In this document: in pieces, positions 6,547 through 24,482 of the stretch
How the letters are laid out: each line of letters starts with the position of its first letter
Position numbering within the stretch: position 1 is the first letter of the stretch
NCBI GenBank assembly: GCA_049512315.1
Contig: JBEKXF010000001.1
Coordinates: 62,001-126,000, forward strand
From: Candidatus Aminicenantales bacterium
GTDB lineage: Bacteria > Acidobacteriota > Aminicenantia > Aminicenantales > Saccharicenantaceae
Direction: 5' to 3'
Length of the DNA: 64,000 bases
Notes under the pieces: model-generated
Database searches by the model: none
Seen by the model: only the letters and a program-made list of their open reading frames with translations
What the model was told of the DNA's origin: nothing
Program-made: the position numbers and the translations under genes

Positions 6547-9100
6547 CGCCTCCCTGAAAAGGATCCTCACCAAGGTCGAGAAGCCCAGCCGCTATGTGGG
6601 AGGGGAGTGGAACGAGATCAAGAAAAGGCCCGGGACCGCGGCCGTCAAGGTCGCCCTGGCCTTTCCCGACGTCTACGAGATCGGGATGTCCTATCTGGGC
6701 CAAAAGATCCTCTATGCCCTCCTGAACAGGGACCCGTCGGTCCTGGCCGAGCGCGTCTTCGCCCCCTGGCCGGACTTCGAGCGGGAGCTGCGGCGGGCGG
6801 GCGTTCCCCTCGCGTCACTCGAGAACGCGATCCCCCTCCGCGATTTCGACATCGTCGGCTTCTCGCTCCTTTACGAGTTGAATTATTCCAACATTCTGAC
6901 CATCCTGGACCTCGGTGGGATCCCCCTTCTCGCGGCCGACCGGGACGGTCGCCATTCGTTGGTCATCGCCGGAGGCCCGGCCGCCTTTAACCCCGAGCCC
7001 GTGGCCGAGATCTTCGACCTGATCGTCCTCGGCGACGGAGAGGAGGCATTCCCCGAGGTCATCGCGGCGTGGCGCTCCCTCCGGAGCCGGGGGCTCGACC
7101 GTCCCGCTCTCCTCAGGGAGATGGCCCGCATCGAGAGCATCTATGTCCCTTCCCTTTATGAGCCGGAGAGACACGGAGCGTCGCCGCTCCTCATTCCCCG
7201 TCCCCGGGACGGAGCCCCGCCGCGGATCGCAAAAAGGGTCCTGAGGGGGTTCGAAAGGTCCTTTTTCCCCGAGAAGATCATCGTCCCCAGCCTGAGGGTG
7301 GTTTTCGATCGGGTGGCCATGGAAGCGGCTCGGGGCTGCCCCCAGAGCTGCCGCTTCTGCCAGGCGGCGAGCCTCTATTTCCCGCCGCGGACGAAGGACC
7401 CCGGCCTCGTCATCAAGACCATGGTCCGCAGCCTCCGCCAAACCGGCTATGAGGACAGCTCCCTTTCCGCTCTCTCGGTCAGCGATTATCCTTATCTCGA
7501 AGAGACCGTCCGGTGCCTCATGGACGAGCTGGCCCGCGAAAAGATATCGCTCTCTCTCTCGTCCCTGCGGCCGCGCGGCCTCTCTCCCGAGCTCGTGAAA
7601 AGCATCCTCAAGGTGCGGAAAACGGGCTTCACTCTCGTCCCGGAGGCGGGCACGGAGCGGCTCCGGGCGGTCATCAACAAGAGGCTCACCGACGAGGAGA
7701 TCCGGGACGCTCTGACGACCGCTTTTTCGGGCGGCTGGAAGCTCGTCAAGCTCTATTTCATGGCCGGCCTGCCGACGGAAACCGACGAGGATCTCAAGGG
7801 GATCGTGGACATGGTCCGGCGCAGCCTGGACCTCGGGCGTTCCATCCTCGGCACTTCCCCCCGGATCCACCTCAGTCTCTCCTCGTTCATTCCCAAGCCC
7901 CACACGCCTTTCCAATGGTTGGGAATGGAGAACGAGAGGTCGCTCGCGGAGAAGCAGCGCTTTGTCCGGTCCGAGCTCGGCCGGGCAAGGTCCGTGGAGT
8001 TCAAAGACCACCCGGTCAAAACCTCTGTCCTCGAGGCCGTTTTTTCTCGAGGAGACAGGCGGCTCAACCGGGTCCTCGTCCGGGCCTGGTCCAAGGGTGC
8101 CCGGTTCGATAGCTGGGGTGACCGGCTCGACTTCACCCTCTGGGAGCAGGCCTTCGCCGAGGAGGCGGTCGACCCCGGCGACTACCTGGGGCCTATCGAC
8201 CCGTCGTCGGCCCTGCCCTGGGACCACATCGACACCGGCATCCGGAAATCCCACCTCCGTCGCGAGCTCGAGCGGGCCCTCCGGGCCGAGCCGTCGCCGA
8301 CCTGCCTGGAGAGGTCGTGCGCGGAGTGCGAAGGCTGTGACGTGCGGTTCTGGAAAAAGAAGCCGGCCCCCTTTCGGAAGCCGGCCCTGACCGCCGCTCG
8401 GCCTCCGCTCGGCGAAAGGTCGGAGGAGACCTTCAGGTACAGGGTCATCTATTCCAAGAAGGGGAAGGCCCGCTACCTCTCCCATATCGACCTCATCCAC
8501 GTCCTCCAGCGGAGCTTTCGGAGAGCCGGAGTCGAGGTTCGTCAGACCCTGGGGTTCCATCCGAAAATGGATTTTTCCTACGGACCCGCCCTTCCGCTCG
8601 GGATGGAGGGGCTGCGGGAAATCCTGGAATTCAAGGCGTCTTTTCGCCTGGACGGCGTCAAGTTCTTGGCCCGGACGAACCGGTCCCTTCCGCCCGGGGT
8701 CCGGTTTCTCCGCCTCGATCGCCTCGGGCCGGGGGAGCCCTCGCTCACCGGCGCGATCTGCGGACTCGTTTATTCCATGGACTGGAAAGGGGAGGAGTTC
8801 CGGACGGCCTGGCGGGATTCCCGGCCGGAGGAGGGAGGCATGGGAACGGCGATTCCTGAGCTCGCCGGGCTCAAAAACCGCCTGGCCGGGTTCCTCGAGA
8901 ACAAGCCCGAAGGGGCCGCCGTTCGGACCGCGCTCAAGGGCCGCCGGCTCCTCCTGCTCCTGCCTCCGGATCCCCGGAGGGGCTTCCGCCCTCAGGACAT
9001 CGTCGCCGAGGCCCTCGGGATCCTGGACCCGGTATTCCTCCTCAGGCGGGACGAGATCATCCTCGGATCCGGACCTCCGTCAATTGACAGGGCCGTCTGA
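6539..9100 (+). CDS. TIGR03960-type B12-binding radical SAM protein fused to a TIGR03936/DUF2344-like C-terminal domain
   Basis: KPSRYVGGE, AFPDVYEIGMS, CxxxCxxC (CPQSCRFC); C-terminal RYLSHIDL...GFHPK...ALPLG. Confidence 0.88.
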   Translation: MFDASLKRILTKVEKPSRYVGGEWNEIKKRPGTAAVKVALAFPDVYEIGMSYLGQKILYALLNRDPSVLAERVFAPWPDFERELRRAGVPLASLENAIPLRDFDIVGFSLLYELNYSNILTILDLGGIPLLAADRDGRHSLVIAGGPAAFNPEPVAEIFDLIVLGDGEEAFPEVIAAWRSLRSRGLDRPALLREMARIESIYVPSLYEPERHGASPLLIPRPRDGAPPRIAKRVLRGFERSFFPEKIIVPSLRVVFDRVAMEAARGCPQSCRFCQAASLYFPPRTKDPGLVIKTMVRSLRQTGYEDSSLSALSVSDYPYLEETVRCLMDELAREKISLSLSSLRPRGLSPELVKSILKVRKTGFTLVPEAGTERLRAVINKRLTDEEIRDALTTAFSGGWKLVKLYFMAGLPTETDEDLKGIVDMVRRSLDLGRSILGTSPRIHLSLSSFIPKPHTPFQWLGMENERSLAEKQRFVRSELGRARSVEFKDHPVKTSVLEAVFSRGDRRLNRVLVRAWSKGARFDSWGDRLDFTLWEQAFAEEAVDPGDYLGPIDPSSALPWDHIDTGIRKSHLRRELERALRAEPSPTCLERSCAECEGCDVRFWKKKPAPFRKPALTAARPPLGERSEETFRYRVIYSKKGKARYLSHIDLIHVLQRSFRRAGVEVRQTLGFHPKMDFSYGPALPLGMEGLREILEFKASFRLDGVKFLARTNRSLPPGVRFLRLDRLGPGEPSLTGAICGLVYSMDWKGEEFRTAWRDSRPEEGGMGTAIPELAGLKNRLAGFLENKPEGAAVRTALKGRRLLLLLPPDPRRGFRPQDIVAEALGILDPVFLLRRDEIILGSGPPSIDRAV

Positions 9101-9112
9101 ATCCGATACACT
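9084..9112 (+). promoter_or_regulatory. Sigma70-like promoter of acyl-CoA dehydrogenase
   Basis: TTGACA (9084-9089), 17 nt spacer, TACACT (9107-9112). Confidence 0.55.
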
Positions 9113-9166
9113 GCGGCTGCTTTTTCGATAAAATCCATAGAATCTCTCAGGGTCCCGGGAGGACGC

Positions 9167-10321
9167 ATGATCGACTTCAACCTGACCGAAGACCAGATCG
9201 CCCTTCAGGAGATGGCCCGCGAGTTCGCGGAAAAGGAGATGAGGCCCAAGGCTGCGAAATACGACCAGGGTCACGAGTTCCCCGAGGACGTCATGAAAAA
9301 GGCCTTCGAGGTCGGATTCCTGACCTGCACGGTCCCCTCCGAATACGGCGGCGGCGGCCTCAGCGACCTCGAGACGGCGATCGTCAGCGAGGAGCTCGCC
9401 CGGGGCTGCCCCGGGATGTACACGACCATGATGGCCAACTCGCTGGCCTTCACGCCCATCGTCCTCTTCGGCACCGACGAGCAGAAAAAGCGGTTCTTCG
9501 GGCCCTTCACGAAGCACATGGCCTTCGCCTCCTACTGTCTCACCGAGCGCGAAGCGGGCTCCGACACGTCGGCCATCCGGACGATGGCCAGGAAGGCTGG
9601 CTGCGAGTACGTCCTCAACGGCTCTAAGTGCTTTATCACCAACGGGGGTGTGGCCAGCCTCTATGTCGTCTTCGCTAACTCCGCGCCGGAGAAGGGCGCC
9701 CGCGGGCTGAGCGTCTTTTGCGTCCCGCGGGAGACGCCCGGGGTCACGGTCGGGAAGGTCGAGGATAAAATGGGCCAGCGGGCTTCCAATACCACTGAGC
9801 TCTTTTTCGAGGACGCCCGGGTCCCGGCGGACCATCTCATCGGCCGGGAGGGCCTCGGCTTCATCGTCGCCATGCGGACGTTCGACAAGACGCGGGCGGC
9901 GGTGGGGGCCGCGGGGGTGGGCATCGCCCGGGCCGCCCTCGAGGGTGCCGTCGACTATTCCAAGACCCGCGTCCAGTTCGGCAAGCCTATCGCCTCCTTC
10001 CAGGCGACGGCCTTCAAGATCGCCCAGATGGCCATGGAGGTCGACGCGGCCCGGCTCCTCGTCTGGCGGGCCGCTTGGCTCATGGACCACGGCAAGCCGT
10101 GCGGGGCGGAATCGGCCATGGCCAAATGCTTCGGTTCGGACGTGGCCATGCGGACGGCGCTCGAGGCGCTCCAGATATTCGGCGGGTATGGCTATATGAG
10201 GGATTACCCCATCGAGAAGCTCGTCCGGGACGCGAAACTCCTCCAGATCTACGAGGGGACGAACGAAATCCAGCGACTGGTGATCTCGAGGGAAGTGATC
10301 GGCCCCTTCAAGGGCCGCTGA
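9167..10321 (+). CDS. Acyl-CoA dehydrogenase
   Basis: LTEREAGSD, LNGSKCFITNG, QIFGGYGY and IYEGTNEIQR motifs. Confidence 0.95.
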   Translation: MIDFNLTEDQIALQEMAREFAEKEMRPKAAKYDQGHEFPEDVMKKAFEVGFLTCTVPSEYGGGGLSDLETAIVSEELARGCPGMYTTMMANSLAFTPIVLFGTDEQKKRFFGPFTKHMAFASYCLTEREAGSDTSAIRTMARKAGCEYVLNGSKCFITNGGVASLYVVFANSAPEKGARGLSVFCVPRETPGVTVGKVEDKMGQRASNTTELFFEDARVPADHLIGREGLGFIVAMRTFDKTRAAVGAAGVGIARAALEGAVDYSKTRVQFGKPIASFQATAFKIAQMAMEVDAARLLVWRAAWLMDHGKPCGAESAMAKCFGSDVAMRTALEALQIFGGYGYMRDYPIEKLVRDAKLLQIYEGTNEIQRLVISREVIGPFKGR

Positions 10322-10332
10322 CCGCGCTCGGC

Positions 10333-10722
10333 CTATTCTTCGATGTACTCCGGAATGAGGGCCAGATTGTCGATGCCCGCACCCTTGGCGATATCGATGA
10401 CTTCCATGACCTTGCTGAAGGGGAGCTTGGCCAGGGCACGGATGAAGATGGTCTTGTCCTGGCGCGTGGAGTACAGGCGCCGAAGCTCTTCGAGCAGGCC
10501 GCGAAGCTCGTAGCCGATGCCGTTGATCTCGACGCGGTCGGCGTTCTTGAGGGTCAGGACGATCAACCCGCTCGGCTGGCCGCCGCCGGACGAATCGGAC
10601 TGGGTTTCGGGCAACTTGACATCTATGCCTTTCTGGACAAGAGGCGTGATGACCATGAAAATGATCAGAAGAACCAGCAGGACGTCACAGAGCGGAACGA
10701 CATTGGGTTCTGCTTTAGCCAT
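10333..10722 (-). CDS. exbD: ExbD/TolR family biopolymer transport protein
   Basis: PNVVPLCDVLLVLLIIFMV TM signature, then a periplasmic domain. Confidence 0.88.
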   Translation of the reverse strand: MAKAEPNVVPLCDVLLVLLIIFMVITPLVQKGIDVKLPETQSDSSGGGQPSGLIVLTLKNADRVEINGIGYELRGLLEELRRLYSTRQDKTIFIRALAKLPFSKVMEVIDIAKGAGIDNLALIPEYIEE

Positions 10723-10755
10723 AGAAGCCTCCTCCGTGCAACTCTAAGGACTTTT

Positions 10756-10784
10756 ATTCTAAAATAATCCGCCCGACTTGTCAA
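10756..10784 (-). promoter_or_regulatory. Sigma70-like promoter of exbD
   Basis: Minus strand TTGACA, 17 nt spacer, TAGAAT. Confidence 0.55.
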
Positions 10785-10803
10785 CGGATTTATCAGCCCC
10801 CGG

Positions 10804-11199
10804 CTACTCCAGCGTCTCGATGGCCTTCCGGTTGTTGCTCGTCTGGAAAACGAGGAAGGTCTTGCCCTCTCCCGAGGCCGACCCGTAGGAATACTGGATG
10901 TCGATCACGGCGTTCCCGAGGAGGGCCCCGATCTCCGCCCCCGCGCCGATCCGGTCGGAGACGAGACAGGTCACGACTTTTTTGGCCTTGACCTTGTATC
11001 CGAGCGTCTTGAGGGAGGTCTCGGCCTTGACCGGGTCCGACGTCACCAGGTGGAAATGGCCCTGGTCCGCCTCCGAATAGACATAGAGCGCCCGGACGTT
11101 CACTCCGGCGTTGGCCAAGGTCCCCAGGACGCGGCCGAAGATGCCCGGTTCGTCGGGGGTGATGACATGGAGCTCGGTTTCCTCGTTGACGGCGTGCAC
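10804..11199 (-). CDS. Tandem ACT domain protein
   Basis: C-terminal part of ORF 10804..11856; GTG after AAGGAGG; DEPGIFGRVLGTLANAGVNV and a second ACT repeat. Confidence 0.8.
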   Translation of the reverse strand: MHAVNEETELHVITPDEPGIFGRVLGTLANAGVNVRALYVYSEADQGHFHLVTSDPVKAETSLKTLGYKVKAKKVVTCLVSDRIGAGAEIGALLGNAVIDIQYSYGSASGEGKTFLVFQTSNNRKAIETLE

Positions 11200-11313
11200 G
11201 GCTCTTCCTCCTTTAGGACGCATTATTATATCAGAGGAAGAGGCGAAAACAAAGGATTTTCTCGTTGTTTTTTGCCCGGGGGGATTATAATGGGGGCTCG
11301 TAAGGAGCACCGC

Positions 11314-12069
11314 ATGACCAGGGACTCCCGCCCGGTCCGGGTGGCCATCATCGACAATTCGGTTTTTCCCGACGTCTATCAACCGGTCGGGCACTGGAGC
11401 CGCTATCTTCCCGCGGAATGGGAGGCCTTCACGGCCCGGCACCATCAGTTCCCCGACCTCCGGGGGTTCAGCCACATGATCCTGACGGGATCCGAAGCTT
11501 CCATCCTGGAGCCCGAGTCCTGGGTCTTCGAAGAGGCCGAAGTGGTCCGGGAAGCCGTCCGGAGCGGGCTTGTGGTCCTCGGCAGTTGCTGGGGCCACCA
11601 GCTCCTGGCGTTCGCCCTGGCCGGGCCCGGACACGTGGCCCGATGTGCCAAGCCGGAGATCGGTTGGATCGCGGTCCGGCTCGCGGCGGAGAGCGACCTC
11701 CTCGGCCCGGCCGGAGAAGAGCCGTTGACGTTCTCCATCCACTTCGACGAGGTCCGCGACATCGGCGGCATATTCGAGGTTCTGGCTTCGTCGGACGCCT
11801 GCGCGGTCCAGGCCATGCGTCTCAAGGACGCCCCGGTCTGGGGCCTCCAGTGCCACCCGGAGGTGGACATCCCGACGGGCCTGAAGTTCCTTCGCGACCT
11901 GGTTGACCGCGGCTTCAAGGGGGAAAAAGCCCTTATCGAGGCCCTGGCCTCGCTCCCTGTCGATTCCGGGCTGATCCGCCGGATCGTTCCCGCCTTCCTC
12001 GCCTTGACGCCACGGACCCCTGTAAACTCAATTTTTTCGCTTGACAAGAAACTTGGAAGTCGTTCATAA
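11314..12069 (+). CDS. Type 1 glutamine amidotransferase-like protein
   Basis: LGSCWGHQ nucleophile elbow and GLQCHPE; ATG after AAGGAG. Confidence 0.85.
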   Translation: MTRDSRPVRVAIIDNSVFPDVYQPVGHWSRYLPAEWEAFTARHHQFPDLRGFSHMILTGSEASILEPESWVFEEAEVVREAVRSGLVVLGSCWGHQLLAFALAGPGHVARCAKPEIGWIAVRLAAESDLLGPAGEEPLTFSIHFDEVRDIGGIFEVLASSDACAVQAMRLKDAPVWGLQCHPEVDIPTGLKFLRDLVDRGFKGEKALIEALASLPVDSGLIRRIVPAFLALTPRTPVNSIFSLDKKLGSRS

Positions 12070-12070
12070 T
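12041..12070 (+). promoter_or_regulatory. Sigma70-like promoter of PKD protein gene
   Basis: TTGACA (12041-12046), 18 nt spacer, CATAAT (12065-12070). Confidence 0.5.
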
Positions 12071-12110
12071 AATTATCCCACGTTATTCGTATCTTCATGA
12101 GGAGGAATGG

Positions 12111-13595
12111 ATGAAGAATAAAAAACTGTTCTTGTTTCTTATTGTCGCGCTGCTCATTTTCGTGACGGCCACATCGTTCGCGGAAACGAAAAAGCTCAAA
12201 AGGATCGGCCTCTACACCTTCGTCCAGGTCAAGGGCCAGGTCCCGACGCCCGAGGTTATGAAAATGCTGTTCGACCGGTACGCCGATGACATCCGGGCCG
12301 GCTTCGAGCAGGCGGGCTATTCGGAACTCTACCAGCCCTTCATGGACCAGCTCAAGACCGCCGAGTTCAAGGAAGAGCAGATCGCCGTCGGCGATAAGCT
12401 GATGTGGATGCTGTTCAAGTCCCAGGGCAAGGTCAAGGTCGCCGAGGACATCGAATGGGCCGGCAAGGACCCGCTCCCGGCTTTCTCCGTCCAGGTCAAG
12501 AAGGACTGGAAGATCTACGACTTCGTCATCCCCAAGCCCTGCGGCAATATCGCCCTCCGGTCGATCACCCAGGCCATCCCCCCGGCGGTCTGCAGCCTGG
12601 TCGTCGTCCCTGAAAGGGCCAACATCAATGACCCGATCACGATCGACATGAGCGGGACTCAGAACGCCAAGAGCATGACTGTCGAAGTCTATGACGCCCA
12701 GGGCCAGAAGATCGCCACCCAGGCCCTGACTCCCGATTCGCCCAAGTGGCAGACGAAGTTCGACAAGCCGGGCGAATACAGCTTCAAGGGTGCCGCGGTC
12801 AACATGGAGGGGATCACGGCCACGAATCCTTGCGCCGGAAAGACCTATATCAACATCCCGCCCATCTGCAAGCTCTGGATGTCCTGCCTCCCCTGCAAGG
12901 ATTATGTGGGTCGTCCGATCACCTTCGACGCCTCCGGCTCGACGGACCCCGACGGCCAGATCACCAAGGTCGTCTTCGAGCTCCTGGACTCGTCCGGAAA
13001 GGTGATCGACACCTGCGTCACGACACGCAAGCCCTTTGTTTGGGAGAAGGTCTTTACCAAGCCCGGGACCTATACGATCAGCGCCACGGCCTATGACAAT
13101 GACGGCGCGAAGTCGGCCTCCACGGACCAGAACCGCCTGACCTTCGAGGTCACCCAAAAGAGATTGTTCTGGCAGGCGGCGGCGGGCCCAATGCTGTCGG
13201 CCGGCTACAAGAATGACCTGTCGGGCAGCACCTACGTCCTGAGTGCGTTCCTGCGCGGCGGCCTCTTCTACTGGCTCGATCCCGACAAGTGGAGCTTCAC
13301 CCTGACGGCCGGCGGCGCGATGCCGTTCAAGGGCAGCCCCTGGAAGTTCGCCTTCCTAGCCGAAGCCCTGGTCAACGGACATTACAAGAAATCCTACGCG
13401 GGCATCGGCCTCGGACTGAGCACGAAGTCCCAGAACGTCACGAAGACCGGCGCGGACATCGTCGCCCAGGTCGGCACGAACGTTTTCCAGACTTGGACCA
13501 AGTTCGGTTCGTTATTCCTGGAATTCCGGGCGCCGGTCGGGCGCTCCTTCAAGTACAACAACAGGTTCGGGCTCGGCTTCCGGATGCTGTTCTAA
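12111..13595 (+). CDS. Exported PKD-domain protein with probable C-terminal outer-membrane beta-barrel
   Basis: Signal peptide; FDASGSTDPDG...PGTYTISATAYDNDG PKD motif; amphipathic strands ending in terminal Phe. Confidence 0.7.
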   Translation: MKNKKLFLFLIVALLIFVTATSFAETKKLKRIGLYTFVQVKGQVPTPEVMKMLFDRYADDIRAGFEQAGYSELYQPFMDQLKTAEFKEEQIAVGDKLMWMLFKSQGKVKVAEDIEWAGKDPLPAFSVQVKKDWKIYDFVIPKPCGNIALRSITQAIPPAVCSLVVVPERANINDPITIDMSGTQNAKSMTVEVYDAQGQKIATQALTPDSPKWQTKFDKPGEYSFKGAAVNMEGITATNPCAGKTYINIPPICKLWMSCLPCKDYVGRPITFDASGSTDPDGQITKVVFELLDSSGKVIDTCVTTRKPFVWEKVFTKPGTYTISATAYDNDGAKSASTDQNRLTFEVTQKRLFWQAAAGPMLSAGYKNDLSGSTYVLSAFLRGGLFYWLDPDKWSFTLTAGGAMPFKGSPWKFAFLAEALVNGHYKKSYAGIGLGLSTKSQNVTKTGADIVAQVGTNVFQTWTKFGSLFLEFRAPVGRSFKYNNRFGLGFRMLF

Positions 13596-13618
13596 GCCCG
13601 GGCATCATCTGAAGAGCC

Positions 13619-13656
13619 AAGGGCCAAAGAGCCGTCTCTTTGGCCCTTTTTATTTT
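13619..13656 (+). terminator. Rho-independent terminator
   Basis: AAGGGCCAAAGAG-ccgt-CTCTTTGGCCCTT perfect stem followed by TTTATTTT. Confidence 0.8.
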
Positions 13657-13793
13657 CAGGGCTTTGTTGGGGGGGCGATCGCCCGCCGGCGCGATCACGG
13701 CCGTTTCCCGGCAAAAGACTGCGGGCTCGGGAGTCGGGAAAGGGATAGGGGAGCCGCCGAAGGGGGACTCAAGGCCAGGTCGCGAAGGCGGGG

Positions 13794-14084
13794 TCAGTCG
13801 TTGAGCTTGCCGAGTTTGGCGAGCTCATCGTTGTAGTATTTCCGGTAGAGGATCTCCCACTCCCGGCTGCCTTCATCGATGGCTTTCTTCTGGGACTGGA
13901 TCTTGTCGATGGCCTTCTTGTCGAGGGCCTCGTAAAGCTTCATCTCGTCCTCGATCGTCCGGACGATGATGAGGCGGATCTCGTTCGGGTCGTCCATGAA
14001 CTCGACCTGGTCGTTCTTCTCGAGCACGTTGAGGACCTGGCGCGAGAGGTAATTGATCTTTTCCCGGGACAGGCGGTTGCTCAC
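13794..14084 (-). CDS. DUF507 family protein
   Basis: RLSREKINYLS...GSREWEILYRKYYNDEL; tandem with paralog. Confidence 0.75.
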   Translation of the reverse strand: MSNRLSREKINYLSRQVLNVLEKNDQVEFMDDPNEIRLIIVRTIEDEMKLYEALDKKAIDKIQSQKKAIDEGSREWEILYRKYYNDELAKLGKLND

Positions 14085-14359
14085 AGGACGATCCCCTTCT
14101 CTTTGGCCAGCTTGGTCTTGATCATCCGGAACATGGTCTGGTATTCGATATTCTCTTTCCGGATCTTCTCCATGTGCTTGTTGAGGATCTCGCGGACCTC
14201 CTGGTCGAGGCGGTCCTCCTTCTGGAACTCGTCGGTCATGAGGAGCGTGACCTCATCGAGCAGATGGGTCCTGTCCTCGGCGATGATCTTGCCTTCCTTA
14301 GTCAGGTTCCGCACGATCACGGACGACAGATGCTCGATTTGACCTTTGTTCAGGCGCAT
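14081..14359 (-). CDS. DUF507 family protein
   Basis: C-terminal part of ORF 14081..14860: MRLNKGQIEHLS...EDRLDQEVREIL...MFRMIKTKLAKEKGIVL. Confidence 0.75.
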   Translation of the reverse strand: MRLNKGQIEHLSSVIVRNLTKEGKIIAEDRTHLLDEVTLLMTDEFQKEDRLDQEVREILNKHMEKIRKENIEYQTMFRMIKTKLAKEKGIVL

Positions 14360-14459
14360 AACCTGAATAACATACAATAGGTCGGCCCAAAATTCAAGGT
14401 TCGATGGCCCTTTTTTTTCGTGGCCGGCGGCGGGCGCGGCGTTCCCCGGGCGGGGGACG

Positions 14460-15368
14460 TCACTTGACGACAAGGAAGGGAAGGAGACGGTCCCGGCCGG
14501 CGGACGGTCTGGCCAGCGCGAGAAGACTCCCCGAGGGGCTAACGACCCTGAAGATGGCGGCGTCGGACCGGGAGAGCGCTTCGCCCGAGGGCGGGACGAA
14601 ATGCTCGGGGAAAAGAGGCGACCCGTGGAGGACTCGGGCCGTGGCCTCGCTCGAGAGGACGAGGGCCGGCGACGCCGGGAGCAGCTGCTCCAGGGGGACC
14701 ACAAGCTCCGTGAGCCGGCCCCCGGCCAGGGCCTCCTCGATCCCGGCGACAGAGACGGCCTCGCTGACGTTATAGGGTCCCACCGACGTTCGCCGCAGGC
14801 TGTGGAGATGAGCGCCGCAGCCGATCTTGAGGCCGAGGTCATGGGCCAGGGAGCGGACATAGGTCCCCGACGAGCAGGCCACTTCGAATTCGACGAGGGG
14901 AGGCGCGTAGTTCCGAAGAACGAAGGAGCGGACGACGACGCGGGCGGGCTCCAGGGTGAATTCTTTACGGGCCCGGGCCAGCTTGTAGGCCCGGCTTCCG
15001 CCGATCTTCTTGGCGGAATAGGGGGGAGGGACCTGAAGGATCTCCCCCTCGAGGCTTCTCATGGCCGCGACAACGGCTTCGACGGGCGGGGAGTCCGCCT
15101 TTTCTTCCGATGCCGGACGGCCGGATGCATCGTACGTGTCCGTGGCGAAACCCAGCCGGATGGCTCCTTCGTAGGTCTTGTCCTGTCCGGAAAGGTAGGG
15201 AAAGAACCTCGTGGCCTGGCCGAGAGCCACGAGGAGGACGCCCGTCGCGTCGGGGTCCAGGGTCCCCCCGTGGCCGACACGCTTGAGCTTGAGGAGGCTC
15301 CGGACTCTCAGGACGACATCGTGTGACGTGCAGCCGCGGGGTTTGTCGACGATGAGGAGTCCGTCCAT
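14460..15368 (-). CDS. truB: tRNA pseudouridine(55) synthase TruB
   Basis: DKPRGCTSHDVV, GHGGTLDPDATG, VPPPYSAKK and CSSGTYVRSLAHDLG motifs. Confidence 0.97.
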   Translation of the reverse strand: MDGLLIVDKPRGCTSHDVVLRVRSLLKLKRVGHGGTLDPDATGVLLVALGQATRFFPYLSGQDKTYEGAIRLGFATDTYDASGRPASEEKADSPPVEAVVAAMRSLEGEILQVPPPYSAKKIGGSRAYKLARARKEFTLEPARVVVRSFVLRNYAPPLVEFEVACSSGTYVRSLAHDLGLKIGCGAHLHSLRRTSVGPYNVSEAVSVAGIEEALAGGRLTELVVPLEQLLPASPALVLSSEATARVLHGSPLFPEHFVPPSGEALSRSDAAIFRVVSPSGSLLALARPSAGRDRLLPFLVVK

Positions 15369-15369
15369 G
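15351..15369. repeat. att core, left copy (GATGAGGAGTCCGTCCATG)
   Basis: Identical to 25782-25800; minus strand encodes truB codons 1-6 (MDGLLI). Confidence 0.93.
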
Positions 15370-15376
15370 CTCTTTT

Positions 15377-16474
15377 TTAATTGATTGATTCGGGAAGAGT
15401 TGCGGGCTCCTCGATGGCTTCCGCGTGGAGTTTTAGGCGACTTCCGAGGAGGTCGGGAAGGTTCTCAACGGCCGCCCGCTTCGTCTTTGCGTCGCTCCGG
15501 CAGTAGCGGTTAAGGGCAACCGTGGGCGTGTCGCCGATCAGCTCCGAGACGGTGCGAATGTCGATGCCGGCCCGCAGCTGCCAGGTCGCGTAGGTATCCC
15601 TCAAGTCATGGATCCGCAGCCGGCCCTTGATCCCGGCCCTGGCCTTCGCCGTCACCCAGGCAATATCCAGGCTGCTGATCGGTTCACCCGTCCTTGGATT
15701 CTCGAAAAAGTACTCCTTGCCCGGCCGGAATCTTAATACCTCGAGCACCTGGGCGTCAAGCGGGATCGTCCGGGCTTTCCCGTTCTTGGCCCGGTCCGCG
15801 GTGATCGTCAGCTCGCCACGTCGAAAGTCCACGTCCCTCCGGGGCAGGTCAAGGAGCTCGCGGCGCCGCATTCCGGTGCCGAGGTAAATGACAATCGCGT
15901 CGCGGAGGTACCCGGGGTCGGCAACCTCGACGAGCCGCCGGGCCTCCTCGAGCTCCAGGATCCTCGGCTTGAACTCCGGCTCCCGCTTCAGGAGTCCCTT
16001 CATCGGCAGGGGATAGGCGGCGAGCTTGCCGTACCGAACGGCCAGGTAGAGGATGGCCCTCAAGCACGCGACCTCCCTATTGATCGTTGCCGTCGACAAG
16101 CCCACCCGGCTGGCTCGGTAGCGGTCAACGCCCTCGGCGCTGATGTCTTTGAGAGCCGAGGTTGAGAAAAACTTCTTCAGCTGGCCGACGCTCCGCTCGT
16201 CCCAGTCGTAGGACCGTTTGTGGCAGGCGTAGAGGCGAAGATAGTCATCGGCGAAAGCTGAAAAGCGCACGACTTCTCCCTCCGGCCTCTTGGCAGGGAG
16301 CCCTTGGGCCGAATCCCGGCCCCAGGCCCTCAGCTTGTCCCGGTAGTCCCTGGCCTTGGTCTCAGTCGGGCCCGCCTTCTCGCGGTAGCGCTGGCCCTTG
16401 ACTTGAATGTCGATCCACCACCAACCGTCACGGAAGAAGAGATTGCGTTTGTCCCTCGAGTGAATTCTCTTCAT
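15377..16474 (-). CDS. Tyrosine recombinase/integrase
   Basis: N-terminal arm-binding WWWIDIQVKGQRYRE; TGMRRRELL, KNGK, HDLRDT, LIGD...NRY; strong RBS. Confidence 0.95.
   Translation of the reverse strand: MKRIHSRDKRNLFFRDGWWWIDIQVKGQRYREKAGPTETKARDYRDKLRAWGRDSAQGLPAKRPEGEVVRFSAFADDYLRLYACHKRSYDWDERSVGQLKKFFSTSALKDISAEGVDRYRASRVGLSTATINREVACLRAILYLAVRYGKLAAYPLPMKGLLKREPEFKPRILELEEARRLVEVADPGYLRDAIVIYLGTGMRRRELLDLPRRDVDFRRGELTITADRAKNGKARTIPLDAQVLEVLRFRPGKEYFFENPRTGEPISSLDIAWVTAKARAGIKGRLRIHDLRDTYATWQLRAGIDIRTVSELIGDTPTVALNRYCRSDAKTKRAAVENLPDLLGSRLKLHAEAIEEPATLPESIN
15378..15390 (-). promoter_or_regulatory. Candidate IHF-binding site next to left att
   Basis: Minus strand AATCAATCAATTA matches WATCARNNNNTTR. 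Confidence 0.5.
15424..15443. repeat. Candidate integrase arm-type site
   Basis: CGTGGAGTTTTAGGCGACTT, 17/20 identical to 25624-25643 at the other element end. Confidence 0.6.
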
Positions 16475-16508
16475 GGTCTCCTCCTCAGGCCCTGGCCCTC
16501 CGAAAAGG

Positions 16509-16742
16509 TCAGACGGGGAACTGCCTCTTCTTGGAAAGGCCGATCTTCAGCATCGTCAATGACATCATCGTGGCAATTCGGTGCGCCTGGTAGGTCACGT
16601 GATACGCGCCATCGTGACCCTTCTTTAGCCCCAACTCTTCGGGTTTCCTGGCCAGCAACTTGGAAATCTTCATGGTATTTTTGATGGCCTCAGCCTCCGC
16701 CTCATCTGCTTTTGCCGTGAGTTTATAGCCCTTCTTCGTCAT
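16509..16742 (-). CDS. Small basic hypothetical protein (77 aa)
   Basis: AAGGAGGAGACC-ATG RBS; directly upstream of integrase. Confidence 0.6.
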   Translation of the reverse strand: MTKKGYKLTAKADEAEAEAIKNTMKISKLLARKPEELGLKKGHDGAYHVTYQAHRIATMMSLTMLKIGLSKKRQFPV

Positions 16743-16757
16743 GGTCTCCTCCTTACT

Positions 16758-16952
16758 TCACCGTCGCCCTTCCTTCTCGTCTTGATGATCCCGGCACCTT
16801 ACGGACCGGCATTCCACCCGTTGAGGCTCCCACCAGCTGCAAAGCCGGCCGGCGCATTCTCCGAGCAGCGGGCAGCGGAGCGGGTTGCCTTTCGAATCGT
16901 GCGGCCAGGCCGCGGCCAAGCGCCGGAAATCCGGCTTAATCCCGGCGTCCAT
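16758..16952 (-). CDS. Small Cys-rich hypothetical protein (64 aa)
   Basis: CPLLGECAGRLCSWW...C motif; co-directional with the integrase unit; start re-called. Confidence 0.45.
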   Translation of the reverse strand: MDAGIKPDFRRLAAAWPHDSKGNPLRCPLLGECAGRLCSWWEPQRVECRSVRCRDHQDEKEGRR

Positions 16953-17285
16953 TTGGCTTTCCCGTCCATTGGTCCTCCCAGCGGCTTGCCGACGACGCCG
17001 CCCGCAGCAGCACCCAAAGAATGAATAGAGCCACAGCCGCAATGAAAAACCCCACGATCCGAAAGATCATATTCCCCCTCCCCCTTTGAGCCCGGAGCGA
17101 AGCCAGCCAAGGACGGGACGTGATGGGGGATTTGCCCGGAATGGGGCAGAGACGCTTGGCTTCGACCCCGGATGTTTTCCATCATGTCGTTTCCGTCCTC
17201 ATCCCAGAGTGTCTCATTGCGTTCCAAGCCGTGTCAAGCTTTATTTTCCCTTCCAATCGGACCGGCTTTCGGCTATGTTTTCCCC

Positions 17286-17456
17286 ATGAACAACCTGATC
17301 AGCGTCCCCGAGCTTTGCGCCATGCTCAAGATCTCCCGATCCACGCTCTACCGGCACCTTCAGGCCGGCGAGCTGCGGGCTGTCAAGCTCGGCCGGAGGC
17401 GCCTCTTCCGCCCCAAGGACATCGACGCGTTCGTCCGAAAGCATCTGGAAAAGTAA
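17286..17456 (+). CDS. Excisionase/AlpA-like HTH protein (56 aa)
   Basis: LISVPELCAMLKISRSTLYRHLQAGELRAVKLGRRRLF is a classic HTH_17 pattern. Confidence 0.85.
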   Translation: MNNLISVPELCAMLKISRSTLYRHLQAGELRAVKLGRRRLFRPKDIDAFVRKHLEK

Positions 17457-17532
17457 GCCCGGGCGGCTCCATATATCGCCAGGGAAGGAGTACCCGGCTT
17501 CCAACTGAGGCCGCCGCCCGAGCTCGTCATTT

Positions 17533-17856
17533 CTAATCCAGTTTGATGAAGGGATTCGTTTCAGGCTCGAGATACTTCTGGCGCTCGGCTTCGGCCTTGG
17601 CGTATCGAACCTTTCTGGCTTCGGACATCAAGGCATCCTGCAGCTCCCGGCCGGCCGTGGACAAGATCTCGCCACAACTCTCCTCCGGCCCTTGGAGGAA
17701 GAACCCCTCGCCGCCCTTGAAGAGCTTCGTCCCGTCGTCGAAGAGGCTCTCCGTGGCCCCGCCCAGGACGTCCTCGGCGGCGCGGATGAGGGTTGCCTCG
17801 TCGGGAGCGGGCAGATTGATCGTCCCGTCATGAGCAAAGATCGGATCGTCGCTCAT
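17533..17856 (-). CDS. Acidic hypothetical protein (107 aa)
   Basis: ATGA overlap with upstream gene; last gene of the packaging-module transcript. Confidence 0.6.
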   Translation of the reverse strand: MSDDPIFAHDGTINLPAPDEATLIRAAEDVLGGATESLFDDGTKLFKGGEGFFLQGPEESCGEILSTAGRELQDALMSEARKVRYAKAEAERQKYLEPETNPFIKLD

Positions 17857-18494
17857 TCGCCGCCTGCCTCTTTGAGTTTCGCCGCCCTGATCTCCAGACT
17901 CTTGTCGAGAAGATCCCGCAGCTGACGCTCACGGTCGGTCTGCGCCTGGAAGTTGGCCTGGTTCTCCGCCCGAAACTGCTCAAGGGTTAAGAGCGGTAGG
18001 CCGGCCTTGGACCGCTCGGCGTTTCTTCTCTCGAGCCACGCGAGTTCGCTCCGCTTCCTCTCGGCTGCGTCCTTGACCGACTTCTCAGCCAAGAAACGCT
18101 CGATCTCCGCCGGGGTGAGAAGCTTCAAATGCCCACCCGACACTCGACGGGCCCAATTGCATTTAGGGCAAGCCGCCCCCGCGTGCTCCGCGCGGAACGG
18201 CGCCGCGACGTCGCAGCCGCGGTTGTCGCACTTCATCCAGGCCGTCTTGACCTTCGCAAGCCGTTTGGCCACGATGGCGGCCAGGCCCGCGATCTCCGCC
18301 GGGGTGGCCTGTTCAACGAGCTCTGCCTCGTGAGAAAGGGTTGTCCCGGACCGCATCCCATGCAGCGGACCCGCCGGGCGTTTCGCGTCCTGGGCGACCC
18401 GGTCGGTCATGTCGCGGCTCTGTAAAAACTTCCGCAGTTTTTCGACGGTCATCGGTGGTGCGCCTGGCTGTTCAACTTTTAATTCTTTCTTCAT
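17853..18494 (-). CDS. Hypothetical protein with Zn-ribbon-like Cys pairs and coiled-coil tail (213 aa)
   Basis: CDNRGC...CPKC; strong AGGAGG RBS. Confidence 0.65.
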   Translation of the reverse strand: MKKELKVEQPGAPPMTVEKLRKFLQSRDMTDRVAQDAKRPAGPLHGMRSGTTLSHEAELVEQATPAEIAGLAAIVAKRLAKVKTAWMKCDNRGCDVAAPFRAEHAGAACPKCNWARRVSGGHLKLLTPAEIERFLAEKSVKDAAERKRSELAWLERRNAERSKAGLPLLTLEQFRAENQANFQAQTDRERQLRDLLDKSLEIRAAKLKEAGGE

Positions 18495-18583
18495 TTAAAC
18501 CTCCTAATTTTTATCTTAAGAATCCGGACAGGCAGTCCGTCCCGCTCAAGCGACGGGTTCGGTTCTTCCCCACCTGCCCGGAT

Positions 18584-20086
18584 TCATCGATGCGCCCGTC
18601 CGGATCCCCACATTGGAAAACTTTGATCCCGGCAGCCCGGGCCGTCCACGGAAACATCTCCAACCAAGCCTAGGAATGCCTCGCCCCGGCTCTCGGACTC
18701 CGAGGCCAGCCAGACGGCACCGGCCAAGCTGTTGATAAGGTCGTCATGGCCGCCGGGAGCATGGTCGATCCGCGTGACCCCGCCGGTCAGGTTCCGCTTC
18801 TCAAGCCCCAACATCTGATCGACCAGACGATCGTCGTCCGGGATCTCGACAAGATCGCCCTGGAGCCTTACGGACAGGAACGCGTAGAGATCCGACTTCG
18901 CGACCGAGCACGGCTCAACGGTGATGTTATTCTTCGCAAAGTCCGAGCGGATCCACCCGATCGAGACGCGGTCCTCGGTAATTCCGCTGACATGGTATTC
19001 CCGGCAGATTGCCGTAAACCGCGCCACAACCTCCTTCGGATCGGCGGGGGGACGGACCTCATCCAACCGGTCAACGATAAGCTTCCCGCCGGCGGCGTGA
19101 CTCACCGCAAGAGTCATGCTGTCGCCCGACTTGACCAACTCGGACGGGTCGCAAAAGACGCGGTAAGTGCAACGCGGATTGTACGGCAAAGCAATGCGGC
19201 CCGGGACCACCGCCCGGGCGATGAGCTCCAGCGAAACGAACGTCTCCAAGTCATCCCGGAACTCGGCATAGTATTCCGTCTTCGCCTTGGAAGAATCCTT
19301 CAGCATGGCCCTGTCGATGATCGACTGCCGATACGTCGGGTTGAGGTCCGTCGTCCCCGACTTCCAGACGAGCACCGCGTCGTCCTCCTTGCCCCAGTAA
19401 TCGCGGAAGAGCTCGAAGGTCGGCCCGCTCCGGATGTAAGGCGTCGTCGGGATCAGCAGCTGCGCCCCTTCCGTCTCGCCCAGCGCAGGCTCGAGCGCGG
19501 TGATGACCTCGCCCGCCGGGTTGCGACTCGTCTCCTGGTCCATCCAAAAAGAAACTTCGTCTGCCGCAGCGCCCAAAATTCGCAGGCCTCTCAAAGTACG
19601 GAAACTCGAGGTATGAATCCCGATCGTTATCCTCCCGAGCTCCACCTCCTCGGCCGTCTCCCGCGTGACCATCCCCCGGAACGCGGGCTGCCGGAGGATG
19701 TCCTTCACGTATCCATGCACCACGGAGGCCTGCAGCTTATCCGCTGCCAAGCAAAGAAGGTACGCCTTGCCGAGAAACGGCGGCCAACGCTTGAACACAG
19801 CCGCGTGGACAAGCTTCAGTGCCGTGAAGAATGACTTCCCCGCGCGCCGCCCGGCCAGGATGAGGACCGTCTGGTAAGGACCCGACGGCCTGACCGTCCG
19901 CCCGGTGAACTTCTTGAATGTCTCAAACTCCGCGTCGGTCAACGACAAGCCGTCCATCGACTTCAAAAGCGTCAGCCAGGTCCCCACCGTGGATAGGTCC
20001 TTGAAGATCTCCAGACCGCCGAACACGCGCCGGTCCTGAATCGCCTGGATGATGTCCAGCGGCGGGAGAACAGCCGGCTTCGTCAT
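18584..20086 (-). CDS. Phage terminase large subunit
   Basis: Walker A AGRRAGKS, Walker B AAADEVSF, motif III PTTPY, RNase H-like VFCDPS...GHDDLINSLAG; start re-called at ATG 20086 (ATGA overlap). Confidence 0.85.
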   Translation of the reverse strand: MTKPAVLPPLDIIQAIQDRRVFGGLEIFKDLSTVGTWLTLLKSMDGLSLTDAEFETFKKFTGRTVRPSGPYQTVLILAGRRAGKSFFTALKLVHAAVFKRWPPFLGKAYLLCLAADKLQASVVHGYVKDILRQPAFRGMVTRETAEEVELGRITIGIHTSSFRTLRGLRILGAAADEVSFWMDQETSRNPAGEVITALEPALGETEGAQLLIPTTPYIRSGPTFELFRDYWGKEDDAVLVWKSGTTDLNPTYRQSIIDRAMLKDSSKAKTEYYAEFRDDLETFVSLELIARAVVPGRIALPYNPRCTYRVFCDPSELVKSGDSMTLAVSHAAGGKLIVDRLDEVRPPADPKEVVARFTAICREYHVSGITEDRVSIGWIRSDFAKNNITVEPCSVAKSDLYAFLSVRLQGDLVEIPDDDRLVDQMLGLEKRNLTGGVTRIDHAPGGHDDLINSLAGAVWLASESESRGEAFLGLVGDVSVDGPGCRDQSFPMWGSGRAHR

Positions 20087-20433
20087 CTGCGACGCCCTAA
20101 ACGGTTCAGCTGCCGACGCAGCCAGCCCTGCTTCGCTTCGGGAGTCGTGTTGGCCGCAATCACCGCCTCGGCATGGGCCGCCTGACTGCCCTCGAGCGGG
20201 ACCGGACCCAAGCCCAAGGCCTGCCGGCGACGTTCCTCGGCCGCAGCTGCGCCCGGGCCGTAGTATTCGACCTCCGACCACTTGGTGCGAGTCATCGTCC
20301 CGGCAATGAACCTGGCGTCGTCCATCTGGACCGACGGGTGACCAGGGAACGGCCCAGCCTCACCCTTCGGCAAAGGCGATCGTTGGCCCGTCGCCGCGGC
20401 CCGTTTGAAGATCCTGCGTTGAATCTCACTCAT
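20083..20433 (-). CDS. Hypothetical protein (116 aa)
   Basis: Overlaps both neighbours in a tightly coupled operon; start re-called at MSEIQRR. Confidence 0.55.
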   Translation of the reverse strand: MSEIQRRIFKRAAATGQRSPLPKGEAGPFPGHPSVQMDDARFIAGTMTRTKWSEVEYYGPGAAAAEERRRQALGLGPVPLEGSQAAHAEAVIAANTTPEAKQGWLRRQLNRLGRRR

Positions 20434-20953
20434 GTTCTTTCCCTCCGAGTTCCCGGATCCTGGTCCGTAGGCCTTCAGCCCGACCCTCGGCCAGGGCCCC
20501 CTCAATTTGCCTGGCCGAACAGGCCAACCGCCGGCAGCTCACGGAGCAAAATCGCTTCCGCTCACCGCGCCTCCCTGGCTTGAGGCCTACCAGGCAGACC
20601 TCGCACTTCCCCGTCCCGATGGCCACGGGGGCCCTATTTGAACCGTGCACGCTTTCCTGTGGCAGGTCCGCCCGGGTTGTAGGCGTCGCCGGGAAGTCCG
20701 CAAACCTCAGGATGACGAGACAGTCCGCAAACCGCTTCCCCTTTTCCTTTAAGACCAAGAGCGGCACCTTCCCTTCCGCTGCGTTCGACTGAGCCTGGCC
20801 GTACGCTCCCTTCAGAAAGGCCGGCAGTTCGAGCCGCGTCTTGACCTCAACCGAATACCGATCATGCCTCACGTCCTCACGCCCCAGGATCCCGACCCGC
20901 TCCCCGCCGAGTTCCCTGGCGATCCGCCGCTCAACCTCCTTCCAGTTCCTCAA
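20426..20953 (-). CDS. PD-(D/E)xK nuclease, Holliday-junction-resolvase-like, with C-terminal Cys cluster
   Basis: WKEVERRIA...REDV...SVEVK pattern; C-terminal CEVC...FCSVSCR. Confidence 0.65.
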   Translation of the reverse strand: MRNWKEVERRIARELGGERVGILGREDVRHDRYSVEVKTRLELPAFLKGAYGQAQSNAAEGKVPLLVLKEKGKRFADCLVILRFADFPATPTTRADLPQESVHGSNRAPVAIGTGKCEVCLVGLKPGRRGERKRFCSVSCRRLACSARQIEGALAEGRAEGLRTRIRELGGKEHE

Positions 20954-21498
20954 GTCGGTTCCCCTTCGCCCCCCTCAGGCTCTCCATGCGGAGTGGCGGG
21001 TGCATCCTGGCCGCTCTCATGGGCCTCCAGTGGCGCTGCAGGCCCCGCCAGACGGCCTCCAGGGGCGTAGTCGGCCAGGATAGCCTCCAGAGGCGTCGCC
21101 TCGGCGGACCGGCGGTCGAGTCCCAAAAGGGCCAGGTTTGCTCTGATCTGACTGAGGAAAGACGAATATGCCCGCTCGAGGATGGGTTGAAAGGTCAGGA
21201 CGCCATACTTGGCCTGGTCTGGACGGACAACCGAGAACCTGCCGGCATAGAGTTCGGCCAGGGCGATCACGCCATAGGCCCGAATGGTTGTCCTGATGAG
21301 GATCTCCCGTTGGGCCGTCAGGTTGGCCTCGCCCCCTGAGTCCTCGACCAGGCGCCGCTCGAGGTCTGCCAGGTATCGTTGGACCTTGCGATATCCCTTG
21401 ATCGACGGATTCACCTTGCCTGTCCGAAGCCAATACTCGATCCCATGCGTGACCAGGGGCCGGGTCGCCGGTGGCATAGGTTTAGGTAATCTGGTCAA
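20950..21498 (-). CDS. Hypothetical protein, candidate terminase small subunit
   Basis: First gene of the operon leading to TerL; helical; QPIL...LALLGLDRR resembles the P27-type TerS C-terminal pattern. Confidence 0.4.
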   Translation of the reverse strand: MTRLPKPMPPATRPLVTHGIEYWLRTGKVNPSIKGYRKVQRYLADLERRLVEDSGGEANLTAQREILIRTTIRAYGVIALAELYAGRFSVVRPDQAKYGVLTFQPILERAYSSFLSQIRANLALLGLDRRSAEATPLEAILADYAPGGRLAGPAAPLEAHESGQDAPATPHGEPEGGEGEPT

Positions 21499-21685
21499 CT
21501 ATGGCCTCCTTGTGGCCCGAATCCGCCCCGATAAGGTACACGCCGAAAGTCGCCCAAAAGTCCACGGAAACGGCGAATCTCCCCGAGAGAACGTGGGACT
21601 TGGGATCCCACCTTGGGAGCAGTCCATTGCATTATGCAAGGAGGCTTCGAGGTGGATTTCTGAGGGCACGTTTTCGGCCATTTCA

Positions 21686-21906
21686 GCGGTTCCAATTGGC
21701 TGGAACTTCTGGATTTTGACAGGTGCTCGGGTGAGGTGGTTTTCGCATCTAGAAGTTCCGTAGAAGTTCCAAGGCCCATATGGGGAAAACCCCCTAGAAG
21801 TTCCAGAAGTTCCACAGAAGTTCCACGGTTCCGGAACCGCTGAGGGAGTGTGCGGTTCCGTTTCCCCCCTTAGGGGGGGAACCGCAGCTCGAACTTCTAG
21901 AACCGC
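21686..21906. repeat. Iteron cluster / putative replication origin
   Basis: AGAAGTTCC at 21751, 21762, 21796, 21805, 21816; inverted copies at 21702 and 21891 (8 bp); palindrome CGGTTCCGGAACCG 21826-21839; inverted repeat 21851-21886. Confidence 0.7.
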
Positions 21907-21914
21907 GGTAGTAT

Positions 21915-22109
21915 TCATCGGGGGTCCGTTTTGCATTGGCCGGTATAGTAGTGCTTTTCCCCGTTGACGATCTTGGTATGCCAGCGGCCCTCCTGTTCGC
22001 CGATGTCGAGAAGGGCAATGATATACGCCTCGTAGAGTTTTTCCTCGTTGGCTGGCATGGCTCGCTCAAGGGCCTGGAGGATCTGCATATCGCGTTCTTC
22101 TTTAGTCAT
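21915..22109 (-). CDS. Small hypothetical protein (64 aa)
   Basis: MTKEERDMQILQAL...; ATGA overlap with helicase stop. Confidence 0.5.
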   Translation of the reverse strand: MTKEERDMQILQALERAMPANEEKLYEAYIIALLDIGEQEGRWHTKIVNGEKHYYTGQCKTDPR

Positions 22110-23497: not shown

Positions 23498-23503
23498 CCT
23501 TAA

Positions 23504-23962: not shown

Positions 23963-24010
23963 TTTTCTCTCCTTATTCGAGTTTTGTTTTATCCGGGTCG
24001 CCGAGGTTGG

Positions 24011-24220
24011 TCATCTGGACCTCCGGAGCAGGAACTCGTCGAGCTGCGTCTTGTCGATCCTAATCGTGCAGTGATGGTGGCCGCAGCCGGTGGGGTTCCT
24101 ATGGCGGATCCTGATGCAGGGAATGAGATCTGCGTTGACCCAGCCCCGGACCGTGGCAGGCTTGCAATCCAGGTAGATTGCCGCGCTGCGGACGGTCAGG
24201 AACCTGGCCTCCACAGTCAC
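24011..24220 (-). CDS. Excisionase-like HTH protein
   Basis: FLTVRSAAIYLDCKPATVRGWV...IPCIRI...IRIDKTQLDEFL. Confidence 0.75.
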   Translation of the reverse strand: MTVEARFLTVRSAAIYLDCKPATVRGWVNADLIPCIRIRHRNPTGCGHHHCTIRIDKTQLDEFLLRRSR

Positions 24221-24423: not shown

Positions 24424-24439
24424 TCATATCTCCTAATGT

Positions 24440-24473: not shown

Positions 24474-24482
24474 TCCTAGAGC

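Follow-up and report, generated by a model that had tools for sequence, protein, structure and literature searches.

The start of truB, the gene for tRNA pseudouridine-55 synthase, is occupied by a 10.4-kb island in the genome of an uncultured peat bacterium (Candidatus Aminicenantales), and the gene itself remains intact directly behind the integrase gene (int) of the island. The locus lies in a 64,000-nucleotide stretch of DNA (contig JBEKXF010000001.1 of assembly GCA_049512315.1, positions 62,001 to 126,000 of the forward strand; hereafter, the window, to whose first letter all positions refer). The borders of the island are exact, and the same locus without the island is found in nature. 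The explanation that accounts best for the locus, and that is considered very probable as a whole, is the integration of a satellite-like island by tyrosine-recombinase site-specific recombination into a 19-bp chromosomal attachment site (attB) at the truB start, with truB left whole and the empty allele kept as a polymorphism, and with truB expression that would now depend on read-out from int and on translational re-initiation. In this scheme, attB spans the base in front of the truB start codon together with truB codons 1-6, and the native leader, together with the link of truB to rbfA and to the gene for a DHH/DHHA1 phosphoesterase (DHH), has been moved 10.4 kb away, where it ends in a nine-codon stub.

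The two ends of the island are marked by a 19-mer, GATGAGGAGTCCGTCCATG, which forms an exact direct repeat at 15351-15369 and 25782-25800, occurs in exactly two copies in the window, and has no match, with up to two mismatches allowed, in 100 dinucleotide-preserving shuffles. Read on the minus strand, the repeat gives C followed by ATG GAC GGA CTC CTC ATC, i.e., one leader base and truB codons 1-6; that the attachment (att) core contains these six codons had been claimed in the original prediction. Between the copies lie the 10,412 bp of the island (15370-25781), of lower guanine-plus-cytosine (GC) content (0.597) than the flanks (0.626-0.633). The core at 15351-15369 is the one beside int, which encodes a tyrosine integrase of 365 amino acids (aa; 15377-16474, minus strand) and reads out of the island toward truB; the int stop codon TAA (15379-15377) and the truB start codon ATG (15368-15366) stand on the same strand with a gap of 8 nt, whose sequence is AAAAGAGC (15369-15376, minus strand). 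The core at 25782-25800, placed by the repeat and by a junction alignment, stands on the DHH side and keeps the native truB leader. There, 25 nt past the DHH stop codon, the host operon ends in a stub open reading frame (ORF) of nine codons (ATG GAC GGA CTC CTC ATC CGT GGG GGG TGA; 25799-25770, minus strand), composed of truB codons 1-6, three island codons and TGA. The operon genes that precede the stub are DHH (25825-26817, minus strand; PF01368 and PF02272), which is the gene in front of truB in the empty site, then rbfA (26807-27160) and infB (27502-29307). Both the stub and the full-length truB 8 nt past the int stop codon had been predicted, and both were confirmed by reading the sequence directly, as were all of the predicted coordinates. 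Arm-type repeats were also sought between 15370-15650 and 25560-25781, and no common word of 9 nt or more was present on either strand.

Integration at the 5' end that leaves truB whole, the central claim of the prediction, is borne out by the repeat, by the empty site described below, and by the gene itself. As the first host gene past the island, truB (14460-15368, minus strand) encodes 302 aa that match the Pfam families TruB_N (6.3e-48) and TruB_C_2 (2.4e-14), each over the whole domain length; the protein bears the GHGGTLDP motif, can be aligned to solved TruB structures from its residue 3 onward (PDB chains, 2.5e-54), and is the single TruB match in the genome. Thus, the two features that characterize 5'-end integrators, insertion at the first codons of a conserved gene and a target frame that is complete afterwards, were both found. 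The crossover takes place inside sequence that is common to the island and the chromosome, and the truB reading frame is therefore kept letter for letter. The nearest relatives of truB (87% identity) and of the neighbouring DUF507 gene (91%) are assigned to 'Candidatus Aminicenantales bacterium' in their source records.

The empty DHH-truB allele, which the original prediction had proposed to look for in related genomes or sequencing reads, was found in both relatives and metagenomes. A truB gene is present in all 41 genomes searched (the host genome, G000, and 40 relatives); in each of the 19 relatives for which DNA was returned, DHH lies directly upstream of truB, and none of these 19 loci contains an integrase match. 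A junction alignment shows that the sequences of G002 and G003, the two closest species (truB 87-88% identical), correspond to the DHH side of the window as far as the core and to its truB side from there on. With no more than one mismatch allowed, six of the seven other species of the genus have a single core, located at the truB start, and two copies are present in G000 only. Moreover, Logan contigs of four peat-metagenome runs (X1, X3, X4 and X5) were aligned to 13800-27200. A 2,583-nt contig of X4 (depth 26) joins 14812-15350 directly to 25782-27200, with 0 mismatches on the truB side and 1 on the other, and a 30,484-nt contig of X5, from a relative that is about 8% diverged, has the same 15350-25782 joint. 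This joint skips 10431 nt, and its 19 core letters fit either copy of the repeat.

Because the X4 contig deviates at 0-1 positions over about 2 kb, it represents an island-free form of the same strain. The island itself is seen in X4 and X5 only as low-depth pieces (0-3.6) that are free of mismatches. In X1, by comparison, which may be the source sample, the island is one contig of 10,472 nt (15340-25811, depth 14.3), the flank contigs break exactly at the cores, and one contig that begins at 25782 has an overhang of 11 letters that matches 15340-15350; in X3, a contig bridges the int-side junction, and the empty form is visible as an overhang at 15369. Both forms of the locus, occupied and empty, therefore co-exist in nature in what is essentially one strain, and the island is a real, precisely bounded and recently mobile element.

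The recombinase that would have carried out this reaction is readily recognized. The integrase matches PF00589 over residues 173-329 with 69.8 bits (cut-off, 27.1), and phrog_1 is matched at 8e-51; the best NCBIfam matches, in turn, are generic Xer/IntI models far below their cut-offs. Tyrosine recombinases share a catalytic motif of R, K, H-x-x-R, H/W and Y, and R203, K230, H289, R292 and Y324 of the integrase are invariant among 33 aligned homologues. Residue 315, which corresponds to the second-histidine or tryptophan position of many tyrosine recombinases, is Asp both here and in the consensus of the 33 homologues (ELIGD); this second-histidine position is known to vary. In addition, a direct repeat beside int that is single-copy in the empty site, the arrangement by which tyrosine-recombinase integration is recognized, was found.

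The consequences for truB expression follow from the position of the insertion. The native spacer between DHH and truB measures only 25 nt, and the insertion point touches the start codon; hence, every native upstream signal now lies 10.4 kb away, and any truB transcript in the occupied state has to start in the island or cross it. To this extent, the earlier suggestion that truB may depend on element-side transcription while the island is integrated agrees with the layout of the locus. Transcripts of int would be expected to run on into truB, since the 8-nt spacer is too short to hold a terminator; it is likewise too short for a promoter. The truB gene has no match to a Shine-Dalgarno sequence in either its native or its occupied leader, whereas int and several island genes have sites of the GGAGG type, which suggests that truB would be translated by re-initiation after an upstream ORF in both states, i.e., after int when the island is present. 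As for the truncated host operon, a hairpin built from att-core and island bases, followed by 5 nt and then five U (25749-25797, minus strand), is a weak candidate terminator at which the operon may stop; its minimum free energy is -22.4 kcal/mol, and a terminator-like site is called at 25778-25756, one of 6 such sites found in the region against 2.9 +/- 1.6 expected. A separate observation concerns the far side of truB, where the spacer between truB and the first DUF507 gene (14360-14459) contains TTGAAT-17-TATGTT, ending 9 nt before the ATG and below the threshold of the promoter scan; this could be an own promoter of the DUF507 pair, which would confine any polar effect of the island to truB.

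The closest analogue of this arrangement is SpyCI, described as a phage-like island at the 5' end of mutL in Streptococcus pyogenes, which splits an operon and carries its int beside the target (PMC3430984). In both cases, a small phage-like island occupies the 5' end of an inner or last housekeeping gene of an operon, cuts this gene off from the operon promoter, and places int directly upstream of it. The two differ in host phylum, target gene (mutL versus truB) and integrase lineage; furthermore, the start codon itself lies within the site of the truB insertion, 18 coding bases are present in two exact copies, and a gene for a TerL-like protein (TerL, the terminase large subunit) is present on the truB island. 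In strain Manfredo, a promoter inside the SpyCI int drives mutL (PMC3430984; PMC4129442). Growth-phase-dependent excision and silencing belong to SpyCI.

Given this likeness, truB could also be silent or strongly reduced while the island is integrated and be restored on excision, with a resting int transcribed at so low a level that little read-out reaches truB. The layout shared with SpyCI in its published description (PMC3430984), the terminator-like hairpin after the stub, and the presence of occupied and empty forms in the same samples all accord with such a switch. For its part, truB is dispensable in Escherichia coli, so its silencing would be tolerated. Nevertheless, nothing blocks read-through from int over the 8 nt to truB, the contigs of the four runs contain no circular attP joint, and the empty and occupied forms could belong to two co-existing strains; silencing is therefore rated as rather unlikely. 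A transcript from the promoters of the nusA-infB-rbfA-DHH operon might instead cross the whole island to reach truB, and it is true that 16 of the 18 annotated island ORFs lie on the strand of truB and of the operon. Such a transcript, however, would need to span 10.4 kb and pass the hairpin right after the stub, and would meet convergent transcription from the promoter-like site at 24445-24473, which makes this route distinctly improbable. Also improbable is a more far-reaching reading, in which the island would act as a reversible switch on tRNA pseudouridine-55 synthesis: integration would uncouple truB from the nusA-infB-rbfA operon and tie it to the state of the island, with either read-out from int or silence, and excision would return it to operon control; the att-core hairpin would terminate int in the circle and the host operon in the inserted form, and the co-occurring alleles would reflect ongoing switching and not two lineages.

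Several results weigh against integration by an active site-specific element with read-out from int, and they are gathered here. The two copies of the repeat are identical, and the repeats alone consequently cannot tell an att core from a target duplication; a circular attP joint is not seen in the contigs of X1, X3, X4 and X5, although contigs drop rare forms. Within int, a weak promoter-like site (15759-15730, 9/12) was detected, one such site being found against 0.4 expected, and the counts of terminator-like and promoter-like sites are near chance throughout the scanned regions. The hairpin at 25749-25797 is no more stable than its shuffled versions (z = -0.76), so a terminator role remains only a candidate. 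Finally, four libraries (Pfam, PHROGs, NCBIfam and PADLOC) gave no family for 11 of the 18 island ORFs, and the label "satellite-like" thus rests on few modules. The identical repeats and the missing circle would also be compatible with a fixed, dead remnant, or with a transposon that made a 19-bp target duplication. Against either stand the precise empty site of a strain whose flanks differ at 0-1 positions in about 2 kb, island pieces of 100% identity at low depth in X4 and X5, and an intact integrase gene that abuts the repeat. In addition, a related island in another genome (G021, described below) has a tRNA-end copy of 61 nt that is its own and has diverged, a feature by which an att core is recognized. 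Thus, a remnant or a transposon is highly improbable, and site-specific integration is retained.

The original prediction had further proposed a truB-specific integrase family, and this part was not sustained. A collection of 5.8 billion proteins yielded 36 homologues of the integrase, all of them on metagenome contigs. Matches were found in five of the 87 species-representative genomes of the family at E <= 1e-60 (G000, G021, G073, G006 and G055), three of 246 in the order at E <= 1e-80 and three of 339 in the class at E <= 1e-70 (G000, G021 and G073 in both cases), and one of 401 in the phylum sample at E <= 1e-70 (G000 only). The two relatives with readable context, at 48-49% identity, sit at other sites, namely a tRNA-Leu gene and an intergenic site. 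In G021, the tRNA-Leu(CAA) 3' end is repeated over 61 nt at 82% identity, and the integrase gene (48% identity) begins or ends only 11 nt away from this repeat. In G073, the integrase (49%) faces the end of an oxidoreductase gene, and its att core is tentatively a 13-nt word that recurs after the gene for an outer-membrane protein, about 0.2 such words being expected by chance according to our own estimate. The tRNA-Leu island of G021 likewise has int beside the core, which indicates that an outward-reading int next to the core is a habit of the clade and not an adaptation to truB.

The elements of these relatives, and further integrases of the host itself, were recorded alongside. The G021 island (L193, G021:C4, 7582-13759) comprises 6.1 kb in tRNA-Leu(CAA), is bounded by the 61-nt repeat, and carries as cargo an HNH endonuclease, a TIR-domain protein (defence-like) and a homologue of the 107-aa ORF of the window. 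The G073 element (L194/L195, G073:C6) extends over about 12 kb, from about 3713 to 16040, and is followed by a second integrase gene at 16868-17848 (39% identity), with which it may form a tandem array. On G000 contigs C24, C75 and C37 (L002-L004), at least three further integrases, 36-40% identical, are encoded, one of which adjoins tRNA-Ser(TGA).

An integrase tree and a table of neighbouring genes, which the original prediction had named as a check, revealed no second truB-linked integrase; none was found among the 86 other genomes of the family, the 339 class genomes and the 401 sampled phylum genomes. Among the matches listed for genome, metagenome and viral contigs, 160 + 80 loci hold distant relatives, all of no more than 35% identity to the integrase; none of these 240 adjoins truB, and none contains truB, DHH, rbfA or DUF507. 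A scan of viral contigs with the integrase as a single protein gave no match. In the tree, a quick maximum-likelihood reconstruction of 40 rows that excludes P0033, P0035 and P0036, which are fragmentary or distant, the integrase of the window falls into a group of nine (59-77% identity) with a support of 100 in the Shimodaira-Hasegawa-like approximate likelihood-ratio test, apart from the group of G021 and G073. Specificity for truB, if there is any, could accordingly be confined to these nine members.

It is on this narrower scale that a subclade specific for the truB start, with truB as a recurrent landing site in the manner of dusA for the dusA-associated integrases, has to be weighed. The nine-protein group is well supported and separate from the users of tRNA-Leu and intergenic sites, and six of the seven other species of the genus have the core, with one mismatch at most, where their truB begins. 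A lead, and only a lead, was obtained when integrase matches were paired with truB and DUF507 matches by shared contig size, among the best 120 of 460 truB matches and the best 120 of 1,657 DUF507 matches: the records of the group integrase P0160 and of the truB protein P0097 both give a Logan contig with a length of 4,796 bp. Against these points stand the absence of a second truB-linked integrase from the family and class genomes, the 240 distant-relative loci away from truB, and the other sites used by both relatives with readable context; the N-terminus of P0097, moreover, reads MPIDGLLV and not MDGLLI, and equal contig sizes also arose by coincidence at 1,859 bp and 1,409 bp. A truB-specific subclade is therefore treated as a tentative, minority possibility. 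The pairings at 1,859 and 1,409 bp were themselves rejected as chance, since such contigs are too short for both genes; the two records of the 1,409-bp pair come from different sources.

Other elements that use the 5' end of a gene offer partial parallels. The dusA-associated integrases, in the published account, act at the 5' end of a tRNA-modification gene whose function is kept by element sequence, and excision restores the site (Farrugia et al. 2015, PMC4482086). They resemble the truB case in having a tyrosine integrase, the 5' end of a tRNA-modification gene as target, and a target that is kept functional. They differ from it in that, as far as this account describes them, dusA islands bring a new sequence in place of the 5' coding end, whereas the residues of truB are unchanged; likewise, the dusA family is defined there over more than 200 genomes (PMC4482086), as opposed to a single truB case. 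The prfC 5' end is given as the site of SXT/R391 (PMC4344509). These are conjugative elements of about 100 kb with an unrelated integrase, compared with 10.4 kb for the truB island. In work of Hochhut and Waldor from 1999, SXT reportedly supplies a new 5' end and a promoter for prfC. A further parallel is the int-sib retroregulation of phage lambda, in which a 3' RNA element beyond att is joined to int only in the free form, so that integration changes the fate of the int transcript. By likeness, the core of the truB island with the island hairpin and U-run would come directly behind int once the island is a free circle, and would follow int only in that form; as noted above, the hairpin is statistically ordinary.

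In this company, truB appears to be a new target among the genes used as intact 5'-end landing sites, the layout itself being known from dusA, prfC and mutL/SpyCI. Full-text literature searches requiring truB returned no report of the gene as an integration target, and the TIGER catalogue of target genes (Mageeney et al. 2020) lay outside these searches, so a prior listing is possible. With truB, the short list of housekeeping genes with unbroken 5'-end landing sites thus gains a tRNA-modification gene that is universal and stands last in the nusA-infB operon, and it does so in a lineage (Aminicenantales) that is uncultured and whose mobile elements have barely been described. For a metagenomic case, the documentation is unusually good, since the same strain was seen both with and without the island. 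The combination of int and attP with a 19-bp attB that is conserved in the genus could become a tool for site-specific integration in such organisms. If truB output does depend on the state of the island, the locus would follow SpyCI at mutL as the second example in which a host maintenance gene is gated by a satellite-like island.

With regard to its content, the island looks like a small element resembling a phage satellite. The features that define such satellites were found in its length of 10,412 bp, an int at one end, a helix-turn-helix (HTH) regulator, an excisionase-like (Xis-like) protein, and a DnaB-N/AAA_25 helicase, with the matches of the regulator and the Xis-like protein being weak. 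The TerL-like protein is the only virion-related match (PHROGs). This protein of 565 aa (18584-20281, minus strand) matches phrog_2 at 6.1e-23, with no Pfam match at E <= 0.001. The replication module is represented by the helicase (22106-23497, minus strand), which matches PF13481 (1.1e-25), PF00772 (1.6e-5) and helicase/primase families of PHROGs. Next in the same direction are the small, DNA-binding Xis-like protein (24011-24220, minus strand; phrog_66 4e-4 and TIGR01764 2.4e-4, below its cut-off), which shares 61% identity with an ORF in the G073 element, and the HTH regulator, repressor or Cro-like (24217-24423, minus strand; phrog_3 2.2e-5). An ORF of 107 aa without an assigned function (17533-17856, minus strand) is the one with a homologue in the tRNA-Leu island of G021 (58% identity, tblastn).

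The opposite strand carries two ORFs of 191 and 168 aa (24483-25600, plus strand) that are probably the cargo of the island. They are preceded by a sigma-70-like promoter, TTGACA-17-CATAAT (24445-24473, plus strand), which is a consensus match only (11/12). The GC content of the cargo ORFs is about 0.49, against 0.62 for the genome, and is 0.488 over 24430-25781. Neither ORF matched Pfam, PHROGs, NCBIfam or PADLOC, and the Atlas returned unnamed clusters only; the 168-aa protein is a member of a widespread unnamed family and has a confident Atlas model.

In a comparison with cultured phages, the integrase is no more than 28% identical to phage integrases, and the TerL-like protein matched one cyanophage (two records) at 24.5%. 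Closer counterparts are found in the G073 element, which is syntenic with the island of the window (int, three unknown ORFs, TerL-like and Xis-like) and whose TerL-like homologue is 34% identical, and in three loci designated L048, L166 and L202 (42% in L202), which lie on an Aminicenantes chromosome assembled from a metagenome, a metagenome contig and an IMG/VR contig. In these three loci, the TerL-like homologues (38-42%) adjoin unrelated integrases (25-33% identity), and a helicase homologue (37%) is present in L048; together, they point to a wider family of small int-TerL-helicase elements. In X4, lastly, a contig of 2,392 nt at a depth of 51.5 is about 90-96% identical to the region of a 77-aa ORF of the island (16470-16952) and continues into unlike sequence where int would be, which suggests that modules of the island circulate in other, more abundant elements.

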